Below, one piece after another: positions 4,362-24,067 of a stretch of 64,000 nucleotides of DNA. A program made the translations under genes and the position numbers. The DNA is from Roseibacillus sp. Lineage in GTDB: Bacteria > Verrucomicrobiota > Verrucomicrobiia > Verrucomicrobiales > Akkermansiaceae. Location of the stretch: NCBI GenBank assembly GCA_051251855.1, contig JBPOGI010000001.1, positions 1,440,001 to 1,504,000 of the forward strand, given 5' to 3'. The stretch's first letter is position 1; the number at the start of each line of letters is the position of its first letter. The notes below the pieces were generated by a model. It saw only the letters and a list, made by a program, of their open reading frames with translations. It did not search any database and had not been told where the DNA came from.

Positions 4362-5726
4362 CTATTTTCCGATGCAAAACTGGCTAAAAATACTCCCCAA
4401 AATTTCATCTGTATCAATCCGACCAGCAACCTCGCCCACGGCCTGCAGGGCCTCGCGCAAGGGTAAGCTAACGAACTCTGGCTCTTCGCCCGACGCCAGC
4501 ATCTGCCGAGCTTCAGACAAAGCCTCTTCCGCTCGTCTCAAACAATCTTGATGCCGCGCATTAATCGCAATCAGCGCACCTCCCGAATTCTCCGACAACC
4601 CTCCCCCAAGACGATCTGCCACTTCCTGTCGCAACACCTTCACTCCCTGCTCTTCTCTTACAGAAATCCTCACCGCCTCGGTCCCGTCCCAAGAATCGTC
4701 CTCGCCCAAATCCACTTTATTAAGAACCAAAAGCGCACTCTCGGACAACCGTTCTTCTTTTGGCCGGGAGACATCTACAAGCTCAAGAATCAGGTCCGCA
4801 TCCTCCATCCGCCGCCTCGCGCGCGCCATTCCCTCTTTCTCAATCACGCTTCCCTCATCACGCAGACCCGCGGTATCGATCAACCGCACCGGAAAACCAT
4901 CAAAATCTAACACCTCCTCCACAGTATCTCGAGTGGTCCCCGCCTCCTCGCTCACAATAGCGCGTTCATAGCCTAACAAGGCATTGAGCAAACTCGACTT
5001 TCCAGCATTGGGAGCGCCAATAATAGCAACGCGCGCTCCCTCGCGTAACAGACGACCTCTTTTCGCGGTCCCTAATAGCGAACTAATCGAGGTTTCTAAT
5101 TTCTTAAACGACAACTCCAAAGCCGACCCCGTCTCCGGTGAAATATCCTCCTCCGGAAAATCAATGTAAGCCTCCACATGTGCGGTCAGATTAATAATTT
5201 CCTCTCGAACCACCGCGACAGCATCACCCAAACTACCCGACAGTTGCTCGCGGGCCGCCTTCGCTGCCAAATCTGTCTGGGCCGAAATCAGGTCCATCAC
5301 CGCTTCCGCCTGAGTCAGGTCCAGCTTACTATTGAGAAAAGCCCGCAAGCTGAACTCCCCCGCCTCGGCCAAGCGAGCGCCACACTCCAAACAACGTTCT
5401 AACACCCTACGCGTGACATGGATTCCGCCATGGCCACTAATCTCCACCACATCCTCCCCCGTATAACTGCGAGGATTCCGGTATGCGACGACAAGAACAT
5501 CATCGATTGAGTGCCCCTCTTCATCAAGAACATCATCTCGAAAGGTCAGCCGAGGGGTGAGCGTCTCACTGCGAAACCGCTTTAACAACCGCTCGGCGAC
5601 TTTAAACACCCCGGGCCCGGACATTCGGACCAACGACACTGCCCCAACTCCAGGTGGACTCGCTATCGCCGCGATGACGTCGCTGCTACTCACTTGCGTT
5701 CTCTTTCCAATTGCCTCGCTCGCCAC
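4362..5726 (-). CDS. mnmE: tRNA uridine-5-carboxymethylaminomethyl(34) synthesis GTPase
   Basis: SYTGEDVVE, GAPNAGKSS, GTTRD, DTAGLR and C-terminal FCIGK. Confidence 0.97.
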   Translation of the reverse strand: MASEAIGKRTQVSSSDVIAAIASPPGVGAVSLVRMSGPGVFKVAERLLKRFRSETLTPRLTFRDDVLDEEGHSIDDVLVVAYRNPRSYTGEDVVEISGHGGIHVTRRVLERCLECGARLAEAGEFSLRAFLNSKLDLTQAEAVMDLISAQTDLAAKAAREQLSGSLGDAVAVVREEIINLTAHVEAYIDFPEEDISPETGSALELSFKKLETSISSLLGTAKRGRLLREGARVAIIGAPNAGKSSLLNALLGYERAIVSEEAGTTRDTVEEVLDFDGFPVRLIDTAGLRDEGSVIEKEGMARARRRMEDADLILELVDVSRPKEERLSESALLVLNKVDLGEDDSWDGTEAVRISVREEQGVKVLRQEVADRLGGGLSENSGGALIAINARHQDCLRRAEEALSEARQMLASGEEPEFVSLPLREALQAVGEVAGRIDTDEILGSIFSQFCIGK

Positions 5727-6936
5727 CTAAATCAAGGAACTCCCAGCAAATGAGTTCACCCATCTGCAGCGATGGCTTTGGATCGTTTGACCAAACCAAG
5801 CTCACAGTCGCATTTCGAACAGGGGCCTTCACCACAATACGGTCACGCCACTTCAGAGAAGCCATAGCTCGGCCCAATTCGCTATCGTCCTTTACCAAGA
5901 CCTTGGCATAGTCGCTACTGTTCGCAGGGTCGCTAAACCGAAATACAGAGAACCCTTCTTTATCTCGTCCGTCCAAATCCACATCCTCTTGCACAAAGAC
6001 GCGGAAAATTCCTCGAGCTCCAGCTTCAGGATTATTTACAAACTGGTCTAGAAGACGAAATTTAGTTTGGCCATAAGTTTGCCAATCCAACTTAAGGCCC
6101 TCTGGAGTCTTCGCGAAAAACGCCATCACCTTCAAAGGACGATCCACAAAATTGTTCACCGCGGCTTCGGATACCAACCATTGATCTGGTTCTTCTATAC
6201 CATAACGCACTCGCAAAGGAGGGATGGGCCGGAAGAAGTTTCGAATCGTAAACTGCTCAGGCCGGTTATAGGTCATCAGAAAAATCCCCCGCTTGGTGTC
6301 GCTATCGCTAAGAGCTACTGGACTGAAAATACTCACGGGCGTACGAAACCCATCTTCCTCGAACTTCGAGTAGACAGACGCCATCTCGGCCTCGTTACTC
6401 GTTCCCCTAATGGTCCACTTAGCCCTCTCCTCAATCGTCTCAGCCTCTAGAAACCCTTGTAAAACAGTCTCAGCTTCTTCAATCCAACCTCGGGTCCGAT
6501 AGGCATTATCCTTCCTCTCTTCAGGACTCAGTGAGAGGCCGGCAGAAGGCTCCTCTTGAGCAACCTTCTTCTTGTCAGAAGAAAGAACCACCATTGCCGC
6601 CGCAGCAGCCAAAAGTAAAACTGCTCCAATCGAGGCAATGACAATAATCAACTTCCCTTTCCCCTGGCCTTGGCTTGGCTCACTTGGAGGGCTCCCTTGG
6701 GTAGCTGCCACGGGCTCAGGATTCTTGGGCTCAGGATTCTCGGCCACAGCCTTCACTGCTTGCTGAGGACGTGCCGCAGGCTCCACAAGAGGAGCTTGCG
6801 CTTCCAACGCTGGCGAAGTCACAAGCTCTCCGCATTTAGGACATGGGGCCGTCGTAGGCGGAAGATTGACCGGCACTTGGATGCCAGTTGCGCAATGCTT
6901 GCACTGGAACGTTCGAGTGGAATTGACTTCAGACAT
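5686..6936 (-). CDS. Hypothetical membrane-anchored protein with N-terminal zinc ribbon
   Basis: CKHC...CPKC, Pro-rich linker, one TM helix, C-terminal globular domain; overlaps the mnmE start. Confidence 0.75.
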   Translation of the reverse strand: MSEVNSTRTFQCKHCATGIQVPVNLPPTTAPCPKCGELVTSPALEAQAPLVEPAARPQQAVKAVAENPEPKNPEPVAATQGSPPSEPSQGQGKGKLIIVIASIGAVLLLAAAAAMVVLSSDKKKVAQEEPSAGLSLSPEERKDNAYRTRGWIEEAETVLQGFLEAETIEERAKWTIRGTSNEAEMASVYSKFEEDGFRTPVSIFSPVALSDSDTKRGIFLMTYNRPEQFTIRNFFRPIPPLRVRYGIEEPDQWLVSEAAVNNFVDRPLKVMAFFAKTPEGLKLDWQTYGQTKFRLLDQFVNNPEAGARGIFRVFVQEDVDLDGRDKEGFSVFRFSDPANSSDYAKVLVKDDSELGRAMASLKWRDRIVVKAPVRNATVSLVWSNDPKPSLQMGELICWEFLDLGGERGNWKENASE

Positions 6937-8211: not shown

Positions 8212-10365
8212 GTGGAATTCCCTGAAAACTTTCTCTTTGGAGTCGCCAATGCTGACCATCAGGTAGAAGCCTACGATCCTGAGCGAGAAGACGTTTGGGA
8301 CCTTTGGGAACGAAGCCAAAACCTCACTCCACGTAAAAAGGCCGTCGATTTCTGGAATCGTTATCCCGAGGACATCGACCGAGCAGCGGATTTAGGCAGC
8401 AAAGTCTTCCGGTTTTCGATTGCTTGGGCCCGCGTTCAACCCTCAGAGAACGAATGGGATCAGACAGCCCTCGACCACTATCGTGACCTTGCTGAATACA
8501 TCCGCAGCAAAGGAATGAAGGTCATGGTCACCCTCGTTCACTTCGCTTGGCCGGTTTGGGTAGAAAAACGAGGAGGACTCATCGGCGAAGACTTTCCCGA
8601 CCTATTTGCGGACTACGGCGAAAAGATGGCCGACCTTCTTGGCGACATCACAGACTATTGGATCACCTTCAACGAGCCCACCCAGCTCGTCTACGGTTTC
8701 ATCAAGCCTTGGTGGCAGAACAACTACTACATGCCGCCAGGCCTCCCCGAAGGCACCGGAGCCAGCGGCGAAGCCGAAGCCATCGGCAAGCTCGTCTACA
8801 ACCTCTTCCTCTCCCACGCGCGAGCACGCGTCCGCATCAAAGGCCTCTTTCCCAACACCAAGGTCGGCACCAATCCGCTCGTCACCGGATTCCCCCCTTG
8901 GCTCCAAAGCATTCTCGATAACCAGGCACACTCCCCGTGGCTCCTCAAGGCCACCTATCGCTTCAGCATGGCCGAACCACTCGTCGCAGGCAAAAGCAAA
9001 GTCGACATGGTCATCGGTGGGCTCAGCCAAGAAAGCCATGACAATCTGAGCTACAGCGACCCCTACGTCACCACAGGCAAGGCTATCATGGTGACTCGTG
9101 AGAAGGACGCTCAGGACATTGAAGCTCTCGCCGAAAGCAACGTTGGCTTCGTGGGACCATCCGCCGACCGAGGCCTCGCCGCGACCCATCTCCCCGAAAC
9201 CTGCCAGCTACAGCCTTTCGAAAACTATCGCGATGGCCGCGAAGCTCTCAAAGAAGGAAAAATCACCGCCCTTTATGGCGACGCCCTTCTCCTTCTTCCT
9301 GCTCAATTCAAGCAAAGAGACGACTTCCGCTTTCTCCTAGAGGACATCACCCGCGAGACCCATTCCGTCGGCCTACCCCTCGGTCACCCCGGTCTCATTT
9401 CCGTCGTCAACAACACCATTGACGACTTTAGTTGCGAAGTCTTCGGAGCCTGCACCCCCACTCGCCCTGAGGAACCCGTCAAGGATCCCGTTCCGCCTGT
9501 ATCCTTGGCCGACTTTTTCGCCAACGACTCTCTCCCCGGACCTCGCAAGATCATCGAAGGCGAAGGTCTCCGACGCATTCGCCGTCGAGGTTTTCTCAAA
9601 GTGGGCATCCGAGACGACCTCCCGGGAATCTGCGAAACTTGCCCCGAGCCAGGGGTCGAGGTTCAACTCGCCAAAGCCGTCGCCAAAGCCATCTTCGATG
9701 ATGAAGATAAAATCGAATTCGTGATTCTGAACCACGAAAAACCTCTCAAGGTTCTCGAAACCAAAGCCAGTAAACTTAACCTACTCTGGCGCTTTGCCGG
9801 AGCAGCCGGACTCATCGCCAACTCCAATTGGTGGTATCTCGGCATTCGCGGCAAACTCCCCAAAGGCCTATGCCCACCCGAGGCCCACCAAGCCCAAGAC
9901 TTCGTCGGTATGGACTACTACTGGGGTCTGCCCACCAGTAAGCTTCATCGATTCAACAGCCTCGTCGAAGCAGGCGAAGGACGTTTTCTCAACGCTCCCG
10001 TCTGGCCCGAAGGGATGGGACACGCCATGCGACGCTATCATCGCTGGTTTCCTAATCAGGAAATCATGGTCGTCGAGAACGGCTGCGTCCCCCTCGCCGA
10101 TGGCGTCACCCGCAAAGAATACCTCCGTGTCCACCTCGAAGAAGTAGCCAAAGTCTGTGCCGAAGGCGTGCCCGTCAGTGCCTATCTTTGCTGGTCACTC
10201 ACTTCTAATCGTGAGTGGGGTCACGCCTTCAATCATCAAACCGACTTTGGCCTTTACCACGTAGGCTTGGACACCGATCCCGAGCTCAAACGTAAAGCCA
10301 CTCCCGAAGTTGAATACTACCGAAACTTCATCGCGGAGCATCAAGCTAAGAAGACTCAACGATAG
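8212..10365 (+). CDS. Glycoside hydrolase family 1 with an inserted family-3 substrate-binding (SBP_bac_3-like) domain
   Basis: GH1 motifs FPENFLFG..HQVE, RFSIAWAR, TFNEP (E155), DFVGMDYY, VVENG (E622), WSLTSNREW, FGL; SBP-like segments at aa ~256-404 and ~453-518. Confidence 0.88.
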   Translation: MEFPENFLFGVANADHQVEAYDPEREDVWDLWERSQNLTPRKKAVDFWNRYPEDIDRAADLGSKVFRFSIAWARVQPSENEWDQTALDHYRDLAEYIRSKGMKVMVTLVHFAWPVWVEKRGGLIGEDFPDLFADYGEKMADLLGDITDYWITFNEPTQLVYGFIKPWWQNNYYMPPGLPEGTGASGEAEAIGKLVYNLFLSHARARVRIKGLFPNTKVGTNPLVTGFPPWLQSILDNQAHSPWLLKATYRFSMAEPLVAGKSKVDMVIGGLSQESHDNLSYSDPYVTTGKAIMVTREKDAQDIEALAESNVGFVGPSADRGLAATHLPETCQLQPFENYRDGREALKEGKITALYGDALLLLPAQFKQRDDFRFLLEDITRETHSVGLPLGHPGLISVVNNTIDDFSCEVFGACTPTRPEEPVKDPVPPVSLADFFANDSLPGPRKIIEGEGLRRIRRRGFLKVGIRDDLPGICETCPEPGVEVQLAKAVAKAIFDDEDKIEFVILNHEKPLKVLETKASKLNLLWRFAGAAGLIANSNWWYLGIRGKLPKGLCPPEAHQAQDFVGMDYYWGLPTSKLHRFNSLVEAGEGRFLNAPVWPEGMGHAMRRYHRWFPNQEIMVVENGCVPLADGVTRKEYLRVHLEEVAKVCAEGVPVSAYLCWSLTSNREWGHAFNHQTDFGLYHVGLDTDPELKRKATPEVEYYRNFIAEHQAKKTQR

Positions 10366-10407: not shown

Positions 10408-11958
10408 ATGAAAAAACTTCTTATCCTCTTACTCCTAGCCGGCTCCTTGGCTGCCGAGAAGAAGCCCAACATCGTCTTCTTCCTCGTCGACGACCTCGGG
10501 ATCAACGACCTCTCGGGCGAAGGCTCGACCTACTACGAGACTCCTCATATTGACCAACTTGCCAAAGAATCCGTCCGTTTCACCAACGGCTATTCCACCT
10601 GCCAAGTCTGCTCTCCATCCCGCGCCTCCCTTCTCACTGGAAAGTATCCTCCACGCATCGGCATCACCGATTGGATCGGAGCCGCTACCGGCAAAAAGTG
10701 GAAGCGTAACGACAAAGTCCTACCAGCTCCCAATGCGAGTAAGCTCTCCACTGAGGAATACACTCTCGCCGAGGCCCTCGCCGATGGCGGTTATGCGACC
10801 TGGTTTCTCGGCAAGTGGCATGTCGGCGGCGAAGGCTCCCACCCCGAAGACCACGGCTTCCAAGTCAACATCGGCGGACACCATCGTGGTTCCCCTCCTG
10901 GAGGCTTCTTCGCCCCCTTTAACAATCCCAAGATCAACAACGACCCTCCAGCAGGAACATCCCTTCCCCTTTGGCTCGCCGACCAAACTTCCGAACTCAT
11001 CACCACTCATCAAAAGGAGAGCGCTGAACAACCCTTCCTTGCCTATCTCTCCTTCTACTCCGTCCACGGCCCCATCCAAACCACTCCGGAACTCTGGAAA
11101 AAGTATCAACAAAAGGCCGCAACCTCCTCTCATCAAGGAGACCGCTTCGCTGTCGACCGCACCCTGCCCGTGCGCCAAGTGCAGGACTGCCCCATCTACG
11201 CCGGCATGATGGAAGCCCTCGACCAAGCCGTCGGCAAAGTGCTCAACACTCTTAGCGAACTCCAACTTGAGAACGACACCATCGTCATTTTCACCGGCGA
11301 CAACGGCGGCGTCACCAGCGGAGACGCCTTCGCCACCGCCGCTCTTCCCCTGCGCGGTGGCAAAGGTCGCCAATGGGAAGGTGGCCTGCGCGCGCCCTAC
11401 TACCTCAAAGTCCCCGGCACCAAACCCACCAACATCGACATCCCAGCAACTGGCACCGACTTCTACCCCACTCTCCTCGACCTCGCCGGTCTCGACGCAC
11501 AACCCGAGCAACATCTTGACGGACTCTCTCTCAAGCCACTTCTCGAAGGCTCAAAACTTAAAGAGCGCCCCCTCTTCTGGCATTACCCTCACTACGGCAA
11601 CCAAGGCGGCGAGCCCTCCTCCATCCTCCGACAAGGGGATTGGAAGCTCATTCAATACTTCGAAGACAACCGTCTCGAACTCTATCACCTCCCCTCCGAC
11701 ATCGGTGAACAAAAGGACGTATCCAACGAAAACGCTGAAATCGTAGCAACCATGCTCACCACCCTAGAAAGCCTTCAAGAGGAAACCGGAGCTCTCATTC
11801 CCGAGAAAGACCCTCGCTTCGCTCCCGCAAAGAAAAAGTTGCAACTCGAACAGCTTCACACCGTCAAGAAATCCCAACTCGAGAAGCAGCACGCCCGCTT
11901 TCTCGACCCTGACTTCAAACCCAACAAAACTTGGTGGGGCTCTCTCCCAATCGACTAA
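10408..11958 (+). CDS. Formylglycine-dependent (S1) sulfatase, secreted
   Basis: Signal peptide; KPNIVFFLVDDLG, CSPSRASLLTG, GKWH. Confidence 0.95.
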   Translation: MKKLLILLLLAGSLAAEKKPNIVFFLVDDLGINDLSGEGSTYYETPHIDQLAKESVRFTNGYSTCQVCSPSRASLLTGKYPPRIGITDWIGAATGKKWKRNDKVLPAPNASKLSTEEYTLAEALADGGYATWFLGKWHVGGEGSHPEDHGFQVNIGGHHRGSPPGGFFAPFNNPKINNDPPAGTSLPLWLADQTSELITTHQKESAEQPFLAYLSFYSVHGPIQTTPELWKKYQQKAATSSHQGDRFAVDRTLPVRQVQDCPIYAGMMEALDQAVGKVLNTLSELQLENDTIVIFTGDNGGVTSGDAFATAALPLRGGKGRQWEGGLRAPYYLKVPGTKPTNIDIPATGTDFYPTLLDLAGLDAQPEQHLDGLSLKPLLEGSKLKERPLFWHYPHYGNQGGEPSSILRQGDWKLIQYFEDNRLELYHLPSDIGEQKDVSNENAEIVATMLTTLESLQEETGALIPEKDPRFAPAKKKLQLEQLHTVKKSQLEKQHARFLDPDFKPNKTWWGSLPID

Positions 11959-21778: not shown

Positions 21779-24067
21779 GTGTTTCGCCCTTTTATTTTAC
21801 CCGCCTTCCTAGGAACCCTTCTCCCCCTCTCTGGACTCGCTCTTCCGGATGAGATGGACGAGATTCTCGAGTTCTATTGCTACGACTGCCACGGCTACGG
21901 CAAAAAAGAGGGTGGAATTAAGCTCGATGAGCTCTCTCTCAAAGACGACCACGGAGACCTTTGGGAACGAATTTGGCGCAATGTCCGCACCGGAATGATG
22001 CCTCCCGCCGAGGGTGACCCTCTCGACGCCGACGAAAAGAAAGAGCTTCTCGACTGGCTGGAACGCAACCCTCTCAACATCGACCGCAACAACCCCGACC
22101 CCGGGCGCGTCACCGTTCGACGACACAATCGCTCCGAATACCAAGCAACCATCAAAGACCTCCTTGGTCTCGACTTCGACACCGCCGAGCACTTCCCTCC
22201 TGACGACACTGGATATGGCTTCGATACCATCGGCGATGTCCTCACCATCTCCCCCCTCCTTGCTGAACGCTACTTTGAATCCGCCAAATCCCTCATGGCG
22301 CAAGCCGTCACCGACAATGCAGCTTCCTTTCCAGAGCTCAGCATTTCGGCTCCTGACTTCATAGACCTGAACAACCCCAAGGACACAGGACGCTTTATCG
22401 AATTCAATCGTCCTCAAACAGTCACCGCCAAACGTCGACTAAAACAGGCTGGCGATTACGAAGTCACACTCACTTGCGCCGTCGAAGGCAGCTCTGAAGC
22501 CACCGACCAAACAGCTACCCTCATCATGGCCGTCGATGGCAAAGAGCTCGCTCGCAAGGATTTGGGCTGGGATTTCAGCAAGGGCCTAGAACTGAAAGCA
22601 CGCACTCAACTCGACGCCTCCGAACACACCTTCACCCTTCAACTTATTGCTGGAGAAAAGCCAAAACCCGGCCAAGGGGAACTCGGAGTCGCCGTCTCCT
22701 CCGTGAACATCAGTGGCCCAATGGGCTCACAAAGCAGGGAATATCCTTTAAGCTATCGCTACGTCATTGCATCAAGGCATCAGCCCCAACACAAAGAAGA
22801 ATGGCCTGTTAAAATGAAGGCCGCTATCTCAGCCTTTGGCGAGCGTGCTTGGCGTCGCCCCCTTCCCAAAGACTCCCTAAACAAACTTACCGACCTTGCC
22901 CTCGAAGCTGCCCGTCGCGAAGGCACCTTTGAAGCAGGCATCCGCCAAGCAGGCACCGCCATCCTTGCCTCACCACGCTTTCTACTTCGAACCGAAACTG
23001 CACAAGACAAAAAACCTAACGATAGCTATCCCCTTATCGACGATTGGTCTCTCGCTTCTCGCCTCTCCTACTTCCTCTGGAATTCCCTGCCCGATGACGA
23101 ACTACGAAGCCTCGCAGCAGCCGGTGATCTTCGAGCAAACCTCTCTCAACAAATCGAACGCATGCTACAAGATGCCAAGAGCGAGCGCTTTGTCGGAAAC
23201 TTCGTCGGCCAATGGTTACAAGCACGAGATGTCGAAAGCCAAGGAATGCGCCCCGAGGTCATTCTTGGAATTCGTTTTTCTGCAGGTCAACGCCTCTTCA
23301 ACAGTCGCCTCCGCCAAAACATGCGCGAAGAAACCGAAGCCCTCTTTCGTCATATCTTGGAAGAAAGAAAGGCTGCAGTCGAACTCATCTCGGCCGATTA
23401 CACCTTCCTCAACGAGCGCCTCGCCGACTTCTACCAAATCCAAGGTGTTCAAGGTGAAAACCTCCGGAAAGTTCAAGTCCCTAACAACCGAGGCGGCCTC
23501 CTTACCCAAGGAACTTTCCTCGTCGTCACTTCCAATCCAACTCGCACCTCTCCCGTCAAACGAGGCCTCTTTGTTTTAGATAATCTCCTTGGAACCCCTC
23601 CTCCTCCAGCTCCCCCCGATATCCCTGAACTCGAACAAGCCGGACACGGTAAAAAGAATCTCACCATGAAAGAGCGGATGGTCGAGCACCGCAAAAACCC
23701 CGATTGTCGTTCCTGCCATCAAAGGATGGACCCCATTGGCCTCGCCTTCGAAAACTTTACTGCCATCGGCACCTATCGCGACGAAGAAGACGGCCAAGCT
23801 ATCGAAACGGAAGGCGAACTCGTGACCGGAGAAAAATTTGCCAGTGTCGCCGACCTCAAACGAGTCCTAGCCACCGACCGTAAAGGCGACTTCCATCGCT
23901 GCCTTGCAGAAAAATTGCTCACTTACGCCCTCGGTCGCGGCATCGAATACTACGACGCCCCCGCCATCGACGAGATCGTCGCCCGCATGGAGAGCAACAA
24001 CGGCACCCTCCACGAAGCCATCTACGCCGTCATCGAGTCAGTGCCATTTCAAAGGAGACGTCCTTAG
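21779..24067 (+). CDS. Planctomycete-type cytochrome c protein (DUF1587/DUF1592/DUF1588/DUF1585 architecture)
   Basis: CYDCH and CRSCH heme motifs; RRHNRSEY, LASRLSYFLW.S.PD, TSPVKRG, LLTYALGR. Confidence 0.88.
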   Translation: MFRPFILPAFLGTLLPLSGLALPDEMDEILEFYCYDCHGYGKKEGGIKLDELSLKDDHGDLWERIWRNVRTGMMPPAEGDPLDADEKKELLDWLERNPLNIDRNNPDPGRVTVRRHNRSEYQATIKDLLGLDFDTAEHFPPDDTGYGFDTIGDVLTISPLLAERYFESAKSLMAQAVTDNAASFPELSISAPDFIDLNNPKDTGRFIEFNRPQTVTAKRRLKQAGDYEVTLTCAVEGSSEATDQTATLIMAVDGKELARKDLGWDFSKGLELKARTQLDASEHTFTLQLIAGEKPKPGQGELGVAVSSVNISGPMGSQSREYPLSYRYVIASRHQPQHKEEWPVKMKAAISAFGERAWRRPLPKDSLNKLTDLALEAARREGTFEAGIRQAGTAILASPRFLLRTETAQDKKPNDSYPLIDDWSLASRLSYFLWNSLPDDELRSLAAAGDLRANLSQQIERMLQDAKSERFVGNFVGQWLQARDVESQGMRPEVILGIRFSAGQRLFNSRLRQNMREETEALFRHILEERKAAVELISADYTFLNERLADFYQIQGVQGENLRKVQVPNNRGGLLTQGTFLVVTSNPTRTSPVKRGLFVLDNLLGTPPPPAPPDIPELEQAGHGKKNLTMKERMVEHRKNPDCRSCHQRMDPIGLAFENFTAIGTYRDEEDGQAIETEGELVTGEKFASVADLKRVLATDRKGDFHRCLAEKLLTYALGRGIEYYDAPAIDEIVARMESNNGTLHEAIYAVIESVPFQRRRP

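Follow-up and report, generated by a model that had tools for sequence, protein, structure and literature searches.

Within a 64,000-nucleotide stretch of a Roseibacillus sp. genome (contig JBPOGI010000001.1, positions 1,440,001 to 1,504,000; the whole stretch is referred to as the window, and all nucleotide coordinates are counted from its first letter), the gene located at positions 8212..10365 (+) encodes a glycoside hydrolase family 1 (GH1) beta-glycosidase, the barrel of which is interrupted by a circularly permuted family-3 solute-binding protein (SBP) domain. The gene starts with GTG and, stop codon included in the coordinates, encodes 717 amino acids. This architecture, a permuted SBP domain inside a GH1 barrel, is near certain. 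Regarding its function, we consider with a probability of approximately 0.45 that the insert represents a functional accessory binding module for a non-canonical ligand, coupled via an arm in its connector to loops on the catalytic face of the barrel.

The gene and its GH1 catalytic domain

The gene is present in a single copy in the host genome, its open frame contains no ATG, GTG, or TTG start further upstream, and its base composition is even along the entire length. The open reading frame (ORF) and every motif cited in a preliminary description of this DNA, which had been made from the sequence without database searches, were recovered: TFNEP at residues 152-156, KVDMVIGG at 263, CEVFGAC at 408, LRRIRRRG at 453, CETCP at 474, DFVGMDYY at 563, and ENG at 622-624.

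Comparison of the 717-residue protein with Pfam resulted in a Glyco_hydro_1 match (PF00232; E-value 2.1e-51, 175.2 bits at a cut-off of 22.6) that was divided into two stretches, as had been expected in the preliminary description. Residues 2-239 correspond to model positions 4-237 and the C-terminal part to model positions 335-452, and each half also exceeded the GH1 cut-off when scanned separately. The N-terminal part (residues 1-251; 8212..8964, +) comprises strands 1-5 and the first helices past strand 5, as delineated by Pfam, hhalign, and the secondary structure of the AlphaFold2 model. Strands 6-8 are contributed by the C-terminal part (residues 557-717; 9880..10362, +), as deduced from the Pfam match starting at model position 335 and from the match to the GH1 structure 4r27. 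In a sequence search against the PDB, residues 3-157 and 557-693 aligned to GH1 structures, e.g., 4r27 (residues 557-693 to 267-398 of this chain). The full-length AlphaFold2 model matched GH1 structures in Foldseek with E-values of ~3e-18 and target-normalised template modelling (TM) scores between 0.64 and 0.73; as modelled, the protein has the (beta/alpha)8 barrel fold of GH1.

The catalytic pair formed by the Glu of NEP and the Glu of ENG is present, namely E155, the acid/base in TFNEP (codon 8674..8676, +), and E622, the nucleophile in VVENG (codon 10075..10077, +). In an alignment of 31 family members, from which 6 of the 36 matches of the insert-scored search described below were excluded as fragments or near-duplicates, residues Q17, H110, N154, E155, Y569, Y570, E622, W661, E668, and W669 are invariant (31/31); we take these residues to be the glycone-site set of GH1 enzymes. 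N154, E155, and E622 are likewise unchanged in all nine sequences of a second alignment that includes distant clades. By its intact catalytic residues, the protein looks like an active retaining GH1 beta-glycosidase.

The absence of a signal peptide and a cytoplasmic location had also been proposed before, and the present results are in agreement with this. The N-terminus of the protein coincides with the first GH1 strand without a preceding signal peptide, and hydrophobic stretches are absent throughout, with 1.14 as the highest mean Kyte-Doolittle value over 19 residues, which together argue for a soluble cytoplasmic protein. In the host genome, which is 95% complete, Pfam GH1 matches were confined to the two halves of this gene, and no match to Pfam SBP_bac_3 was found anywhere in it at an E-value of ≤0.001.

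The insert as a permuted family-3 SBP domain

The insert is approximately 260 amino acids long, is located between barrel strands 5 and 6, and matches family-3 SBPs in two segments of reversed order, as had been supposed from the sequence. When the insert alone (residues 242-560) was compared with PDB sequences, residues 261-406 aligned to residues 67-217 of AncQR (4zv1; E-value 2.4e-9) and residues 452-512 to residues 36-99 of CjaA (1xt8; E-value 4.9e-7), and 2yjp was matched by both pieces in reversed order. An insert profile was built from 72 sequences, comprising the window protein and 71 sequences from the 76 related loci, of which three short forms and two fragments had been excluded. 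It matched 4zv1 with an E-value of 1.5e-24, and in the comparison with 1xt8, profile positions 192-269 correspond to chain residues 25-105 and positions 11-160 to residues 105-255. In these alignments, the permutation breakpoint is a single residue (1xt8 residue 105), with nothing missing or doubled, and the SBP chain is cut in lobe 1, after helix 2 and before strand 3.

Segment 1 (residues 260-411; 8989..9444, +) represents the native C-terminal two-thirds, as indicated by matches to 4zv1 (residues 66-221) and 2ia4, and runs through lobe-1 strand 3, a hinge, lobe 2, the second hinge, and the last strand and helix of lobe 1. Lobe 2 itself (residues 289-378; 9076..9345, +) is the part deleted in natural short forms and was delimited by alignment gaps and short ORFs. 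Segment 2 (residues 451-520; 9562..9771, +), the native N-terminal third, consists of strand 1, helix 1, strand 2, and helix 2 of lobe 1 (1xt8 residues 25-105, E-value 7.4e-12 for this stretch). The two segments are joined by a connector (residues 412-450; 9445..9561, +) leading from the native C-terminus to the native N-terminus, which showed a low predicted local distance difference test (pLDDT) score. With eight Pro among its 39 residues, it is indeed the Pro-rich linker noted in the preliminary description.

That structure prediction would reveal a two-lobed SBP fold had been anticipated as well. In Foldseek, the full-length model matched only GH1 structures, and the insert was therefore folded separately. 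The AlphaFold2 model of the insert alone reached a pLDDT of 77.6 and a predicted TM score (pTM) of 0.75, with disorder confined to the connector and pLDDT values between 85 and 94 for residues 451-520. Its top Foldseek match was the family-3 SBP 4ymx (3.7e-10), and the top match of an exhaustive VIA-align search was 2ia4 (Z 13.5, root-mean-square deviation 3.3, 151 aligned residues), with residues 12-162 of the insert model corresponding to residues 83-242; since both aligners are sequential, these matches cover the native C-terminal two-thirds only. In the insert-only model, the two-lobed type II binding-protein fold is present.

The two SBP_bac_3 matches in reversed model order that had been predicted for a Pfam search were not obtained. 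No SBP match was reported for the whole protein even at an E-value of ≤10, and the insert alone yielded one sub-threshold stretch (22.2 bits at a cut-off of 26.4). Distant family members exceeded the SBP_bac_3 cut-off with 51-76 bits. Three further features of SBPs are missing from the window protein, namely the native N-to-C order, an export signal, and an ABC transporter partner, either adjoining the gene or conserved in the 76 related loci.

The site of insertion was deduced from hhalign comparisons with canonical Verrucomicrobial GH1 proteins of the same order, which covered residues 1-222, up to strand 5, with a probability of 100%. In the alignment of residues 505-717, the helices following the insert (residues 521-556, NSNWWYLG..GKLP..LCP; 9772..9879, +) correspond to canonical GH1 positions ~240-272, FNSCWWSDPIFTGKYP. 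These helices are the best-conserved segment of the protein (mean pairwise identity of 0.78) and, judging from this alignment, belong to GH1 and lie outside the SBP insert. Since they align to positions ~240-272, the SBP domain interrupts the helical stretch between strands 5 and 6 at canonical position ~240. Residues 205-262, preceding the insert, gave no meaningful alignment with canonical GH1, so that the canonical position of the N-side junction is only approximate.

Distribution and conservation of the architecture

A search scored on the insert identified 36 proteins of ~610-760 amino acids with identities down to 28%. When one genome per species was scanned, 367 of 371 candidate stretches were found to encode a relative, and the best 80 of these 371 stretches all originated from Verrucomicrobiota. 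Public annotation pipelines designate the relatives as "family 1 glycosylhydrolase" or with both COG names. The same single ORF is present in the cultured isolates Roseibacillus persicicus, R. ishigakijimensis, Luteolibacter algae, L. marinus, and Haloferula sargassicola, and also in dozens of independent metagenome-assembled genomes (MAGs). Within the window's own family, 66 out of 300 genomes carry the gene, following a genus-wise pattern: it was detected in 7/8 genomes of the own genus, 28/35 of genus g3, 25/52 of g4, and 5/6 of g189, and in none of the 52 and 42 genomes of genera g2 and g192, respectively. A phylum-wide profile search with the insert (3 of 401 genomes) was not used for the distribution, with at most six candidates scored per genome and a sample dominated by a genus without the gene. 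Among the best 120 relatives of the GH1 N-terminal half, no close GH1 protein lacking the insert was found; all of them comprise 600-763 amino acids, except for one of 467 amino acids, which is probably a fragment.

The preliminary description had regarded a lack of homologues as a sign of an assembly chimera. This argument fails, since the architecture is conserved. The same ORF in cultured isolates and dozens of independent MAGs, together with the uniform base composition across the gene, excludes an assembly chimera or a frameshifted fusion of two genes, and no observation in favor of either was made.

In-frame stops were observed in three relatives (two TAG in G327:C23:558660-560801, one TAG in G627:C534:5572-7692, and one TAA in G657:C148:18283-18636), which may be decaying copies or contain sequencing errors. 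The ESM Atlas holds three clusters combining GH1 and SBP_bac_3, with 176, 93, and 51 members; the second of them, originating mostly from another phylum, Vulcanimicrobiota, is mentioned here as a lead only.

Putative origin from a tandem SBP repeat

Over profile positions 10-266, the insert profile is colinear with proteins composed of two to four tandem SBP_bac_3 repeats, whose high ranks in the profile search are inflated by the several repeats that each contains. BLASTP produced a single segment spanning the repeat junction (25% identity), in which insert positions 10-252 correspond to positions 137-405 of P0048, a protein with two repeats that its source names a glutamate ABC-transporter binding protein of Chloroflexia. 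The simplest reading of these alignments is that the permuted domain would be an out-of-register window of a tandem SBP repeat. The captured piece would then have begun one third of the way into one repeat, crossed the inter-repeat linker, and ended after the first third of the repeat that followed, and the Pro-rich connector with its PVSLADFF arm would represent the former linker. Given an identity of only 25%, P0048 does not pin down the tandem-SBP donor.

Other multi-repeat proteins were encountered in this context. P0049 and P0051 (1251-1323 amino acids) combine an FGE-sulfatase (sulfatase-modifying-factor-like) domain with four SBP_bac_3 repeats in one chain, and P0065 contains two SBP repeats and a LysM domain.

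The connector arm, the ligand site, and lobe 2

Within the connector, the motif PPVSLADFF (residues 428-436; 9493..9519, +) stands out by its conservation, P429, S431, and L432 being nearly invariant in the 31-member alignment. For complex prediction, the N part of the barrel (residues 1-251), its C part (516-717), and the insert (252-515) were treated as separate chains, accompanied by controls. The prediction reached an ipSAE score of 0.62 (0.58, 0.67, and 0.62 in the individual runs) compared to 0.00 for the best control, with the runs agreeing in at least 42% of the contacts and a partner pLDDT of at least 69. In the calibration of the predictor, 116 of 157 solved complexes attained this score, as did 2 of 215 mismatched pairs. 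The only confident interface was formed between insert residues 428-436 and barrel residues 28, 31-32, 35-37, 118-119, 171-172, and 175-181. According to the order of strands and helices in the AlphaFold2 model, these barrel residues are located in the loops past strands 1, 3, and 4, on the catalytic face that also carries Q17, H110, and E155. Among them, W32, P175, P176, and G177 show little or no variation. The PVSLADFF arm is thus predicted to dock on loops of the catalytic face.

Canonical family-3 SBPs bind alpha-amino acids by means of an Arg past a G-x-T motif, which holds the alpha-carboxylate of the ligand, a Ser/Thr motif in lobe 2, and the Asp of a (D)AxxxD motif. D357 of the window protein presumably corresponds to the position that binds the amino group of the ligand in canonical members. 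In distant members of the family, the Arg (LTxTxER), a GST-like motif, and the Asp are all kept (7/7 aligned sequences), for which reason the ancestral insert probably bound an amino-acid-like ligand; in the clade of the window protein, this site is remodelled. Residue counts were performed on 77 Verrucomicrobiales sequences and revealed near-invariant polar residues, i.e., D265 (75), Y285 (75), K290 (72), D357 (74), R373 (73), and H392 (76). The pairs G356-D357 and L327-P328 are invariant or nearly so, as are K290 and R373. Among 69 long forms, the mean pairwise identity amounts to 0.54 for lobe 2, 0.56-0.67 for the lobe-1 pieces, and 0.33 for the connector.

Natural short forms of 607-646 amino acids (P0032-P0036; L008, L012, and L018) were found to be devoid of lobe 2 (~100 amino acids, residues ~289-378). 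ORFs of 613-646 amino acids match residues 1-286 and 378-710 of the window protein. The short forms retain lobe 1, a connector motif of the SLADYF type, and all catalytic residues. The lobe-2-deleted form is fixed in genus g189 (5/6 genomes) and occurs sporadically in another genus.

The Cys pairs near the permutation junction, previously suggested as an additional metal or redox site, turned out to be clade-specific. C408 and C474 are each present in 7 of the 77 sequences and confined to a Roseibacillus-like subgroup, and C414 and C477 each occur in 36. Such a site was consequently rejected as a family feature.

Functional interpretation of the insert

We tentatively favor the interpretation of the insert as an accessory binding module, for which we infer both ligand binding and an effect on activity. 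Through the conserved PVSLADFF arm, lobe 1 would be held at the catalytic face, and lobe 2 could still move between an open and a closed state. A ligand in the remodelled cleft would then alter how the aglycone side of the active site is reached or how it recognizes its substrate. This ligand would be a small molecule of a non-canonical kind (an effector or the aglycone end of the substrate) and not a standard alpha-amino acid. In its strongest form, this proposal would make the protein a natural counterpart of engineered switches, i.e., a permuted clamshell strapped to the GH1 rim by which an effector or the aglycone gates or re-specifies hydrolysis; this stronger form we regard as unlikely.

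Several observations weigh against a binding module. In comparison with AncQR, the loop past VDMVIGG lacks two residues, and it features no Arg at the carboxylate-binding position (S275 region). Among the 58 of 77 Verrucomicrobiales sequences in which this position could be scored by pattern, only two possess an Arg, both of them short forms, and the others carry D (44), S, E, G, Q, or N. The GST motif of lobe 2 is replaced in the clade of the window protein as well; the canonical amino-acid site is therefore incomplete there, with Asp357 being retained. The forms without lobe 2 keep every catalytic residue, so that the clamshell appears to be unneeded for basic enzyme function. Placement of the native N-terminal third, which would complete lobe 1, follows from the sequence match, the pLDDT of 85-94, and the pTM and not from a non-sequential superposition, and the SBP_bac_3 score of the insert lies below the cut-off. 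In the complex prediction, the globular SBP body made no confident contact with the barrel. The calibration counts given above apply only roughly, since an own alignment and a cut into three chains were used here. The PVSLADFF motif was not found in distant clades (nine-sequence alignment), and a mechanism via the arm would thus be specific to the clade of the window protein. Finally, no conserved neighbor hinting at a substrate or an effector was detected, as no neighboring family occurred in more than 13 of 76 loci (80 loci were considered, and L019, L050, L067, and L073 were dropped because no single GH1 ORF was called).

Part of this evidence would also fit a structural relic, in which the SBP domain binds nothing in this clade, lobe 1 and the arm serve as a buttress or an oligomerisation surface, and lobe 2 is a passenger. 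The loss of the canonical Arg and GST, the sub-threshold SBP_bac_3 score, the deletion of lobe 2 with intact catalytic residues in five of six genomes of one genus and in some of another, and the fact that the sole confident predicted contact involves a linear motif rather than the cleft all point in this direction. Moreover, conservation within the insert region is highest in a lobe-1 strand and in the GH1-derived helices following the insert. However, lobe 2 is more conserved than the connector (0.54 versus 0.33), the residues G356-D357, L327-P328, K290, and R373 are kept almost without exception, D357 being the presumed amino-group-binding position, and long forms persist in many genera. 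We consider a relic somewhat unlikely. A literal amino-acid-gated switch, with a free alpha-amino acid bound in the manner of GltI or Peb1A and allosteric switching of the glycosidase by clamshell closure, is quite improbable for the window protein, given the absent carboxylate-binding Arg (2/58 in the clade) in the shortened loop, the replaced Ser/Thr motif, and the short forms without lobe 2. In addition, the native termini, and hence both ends of the arm, are presumably located on lobe 1, where closure would not obviously move them. The SBP fold and the Asp are nevertheless kept, and distant clades possess the full Arg/GST/Asp set, so that such a switch may hold there and may be more likely in these clades than in the window protein. 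Precedents for it are the natural enzyme MltF (PMC10746161) and the engineered chimera XynA-XBP271 (PMC4896006).

Gene neighborhood

In 13 of the 76 related loci, the gene is directly preceded by a co-oriented gene for a small LysM-domain protein (e.g., L014:7334-7942), and in eight loci an M23 peptidase is encoded downstream; these counts are too low to hint at a functional link. The hisC-like aminotransferase, the sulfatase, and the esterase neighboring the gene in the window are common only to the three to five closest loci. The sulfatase features a signal peptide, is encoded directly downstream (10408-11958, +), and keeps this position in L002, L003, L004, L006, and L007, but not further out.

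Further genes of the window include an ORF of 416 amino acids at 5686-6936 (-), without Pfam match, possessing a zinc-ribbon-like N-terminus (CxxC...CxxC) and, behind it, a hydrophobic stretch. This ORF shares 41 bases with the start of the MnmE gene and is also conserved in L002 and L006. At 21779-24067 (+), a protein of 762 amino acids with the PSCyt1/PSD2-5/PSCyt3 domain set is encoded, which is typical of Planctomycetes-Verrucomicrobia. In locus L050 (8001-13005), tblastn matches reach ~3 kb past the gene, which points to either a broken copy or another related gene.

Relation to known systems and significance

With canonical bacterial GH1 enzymes (nearest solved structures: 4r27, BGL167; 8kap, SGR_2426; and 6z1h, an ancestral GH1), the window protein has in common both barrel halves, NEP, ENG, and the glycone-site residues. 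Most bacterial GH1 enzymes are likewise cytoplasmic and devoid of a signal peptide. The window protein differs from them by ~260 additional amino acids between canonical positions ~239 and 243. Family-3 SBPs (AncQR, 4zv1; CjaA, 1xt8; Peb1A, 2v25; and GlnBP, 1wdn) share with the insert the type II two-lobed fold and the motifs VDxxIxG, SDPY, the Asp of (D)AxxxD, and the RRGxLxVG start. In contrast to these proteins, the insert is permuted, internal to an enzyme, and cytoplasmic, has lost Arg and GST in this clade, and has no ABC transporter nearby. Tandem-SBP proteins (P0048; GlnPQ SBD1-SBD2, 6h30) show the same succession of elements as the insert when read from the end of repeat n through the linker into the start of repeat n+1, but the insert amounts to a single domain and is embedded in GH1.

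Synthetic allosteric enzymes and biosensors are routinely obtained by inserting and circularly permuting the domains of binding proteins, and domain-insertion biosensors derived from periplasmic binding proteins exist as an engineered class. The nearest engineered analogue is XynA-XBP271, in which a glycoside hydrolase and a periplasmic-binding-protein fold were joined by domain insertion and which is reported to be stimulated ~3-fold by xylose (PMC4896006). Engineered switches of this kind are man-made and place the enzyme into the binding protein, whereas here a permuted binding domain resides within an enzyme and is natural. In its logic, the nearest natural analogue is the lytic transglycosylase MltF, a glycan-cleaving enzyme with a binding domain that allosterically controls the active site; binding of muropeptides by its N-terminal regulatory domain is described to open the catalytic site (PMC10746161). 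The binding domain of MltF is N-terminal and neither inserted nor permuted, and MltF is periplasmic and of another catalytic fold. A weak match of the insert profile to a chain titled MltF (6hqh) was also recorded (E-value 0.001).

No GH1 enzyme with an inserted permuted SBP domain, and no conserved natural protein combining insertion and permutation in this way, was found to be described in the literature searched. If the insert is only structural, the protein would still be a clear-cut case of a permuted domain inserted into an enzyme, albeit of modest interest. Its out-of-register capture from a tandem repeat, if correct, bears on the question of how permuted domains arise. Since the gene encodes the only GH1 enzyme detected in the genome, any effect of the insert would apply to all GH1 activity in the cell. 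Moreover, three natural states are available for comparison, i.e., distant clades with an intact amino-acid site, the present clade with a remodelled site, and a genus without lobe 2. If the insert indeed acts as a coupled module, this family would show an evolutionary solution to the coupling problem.

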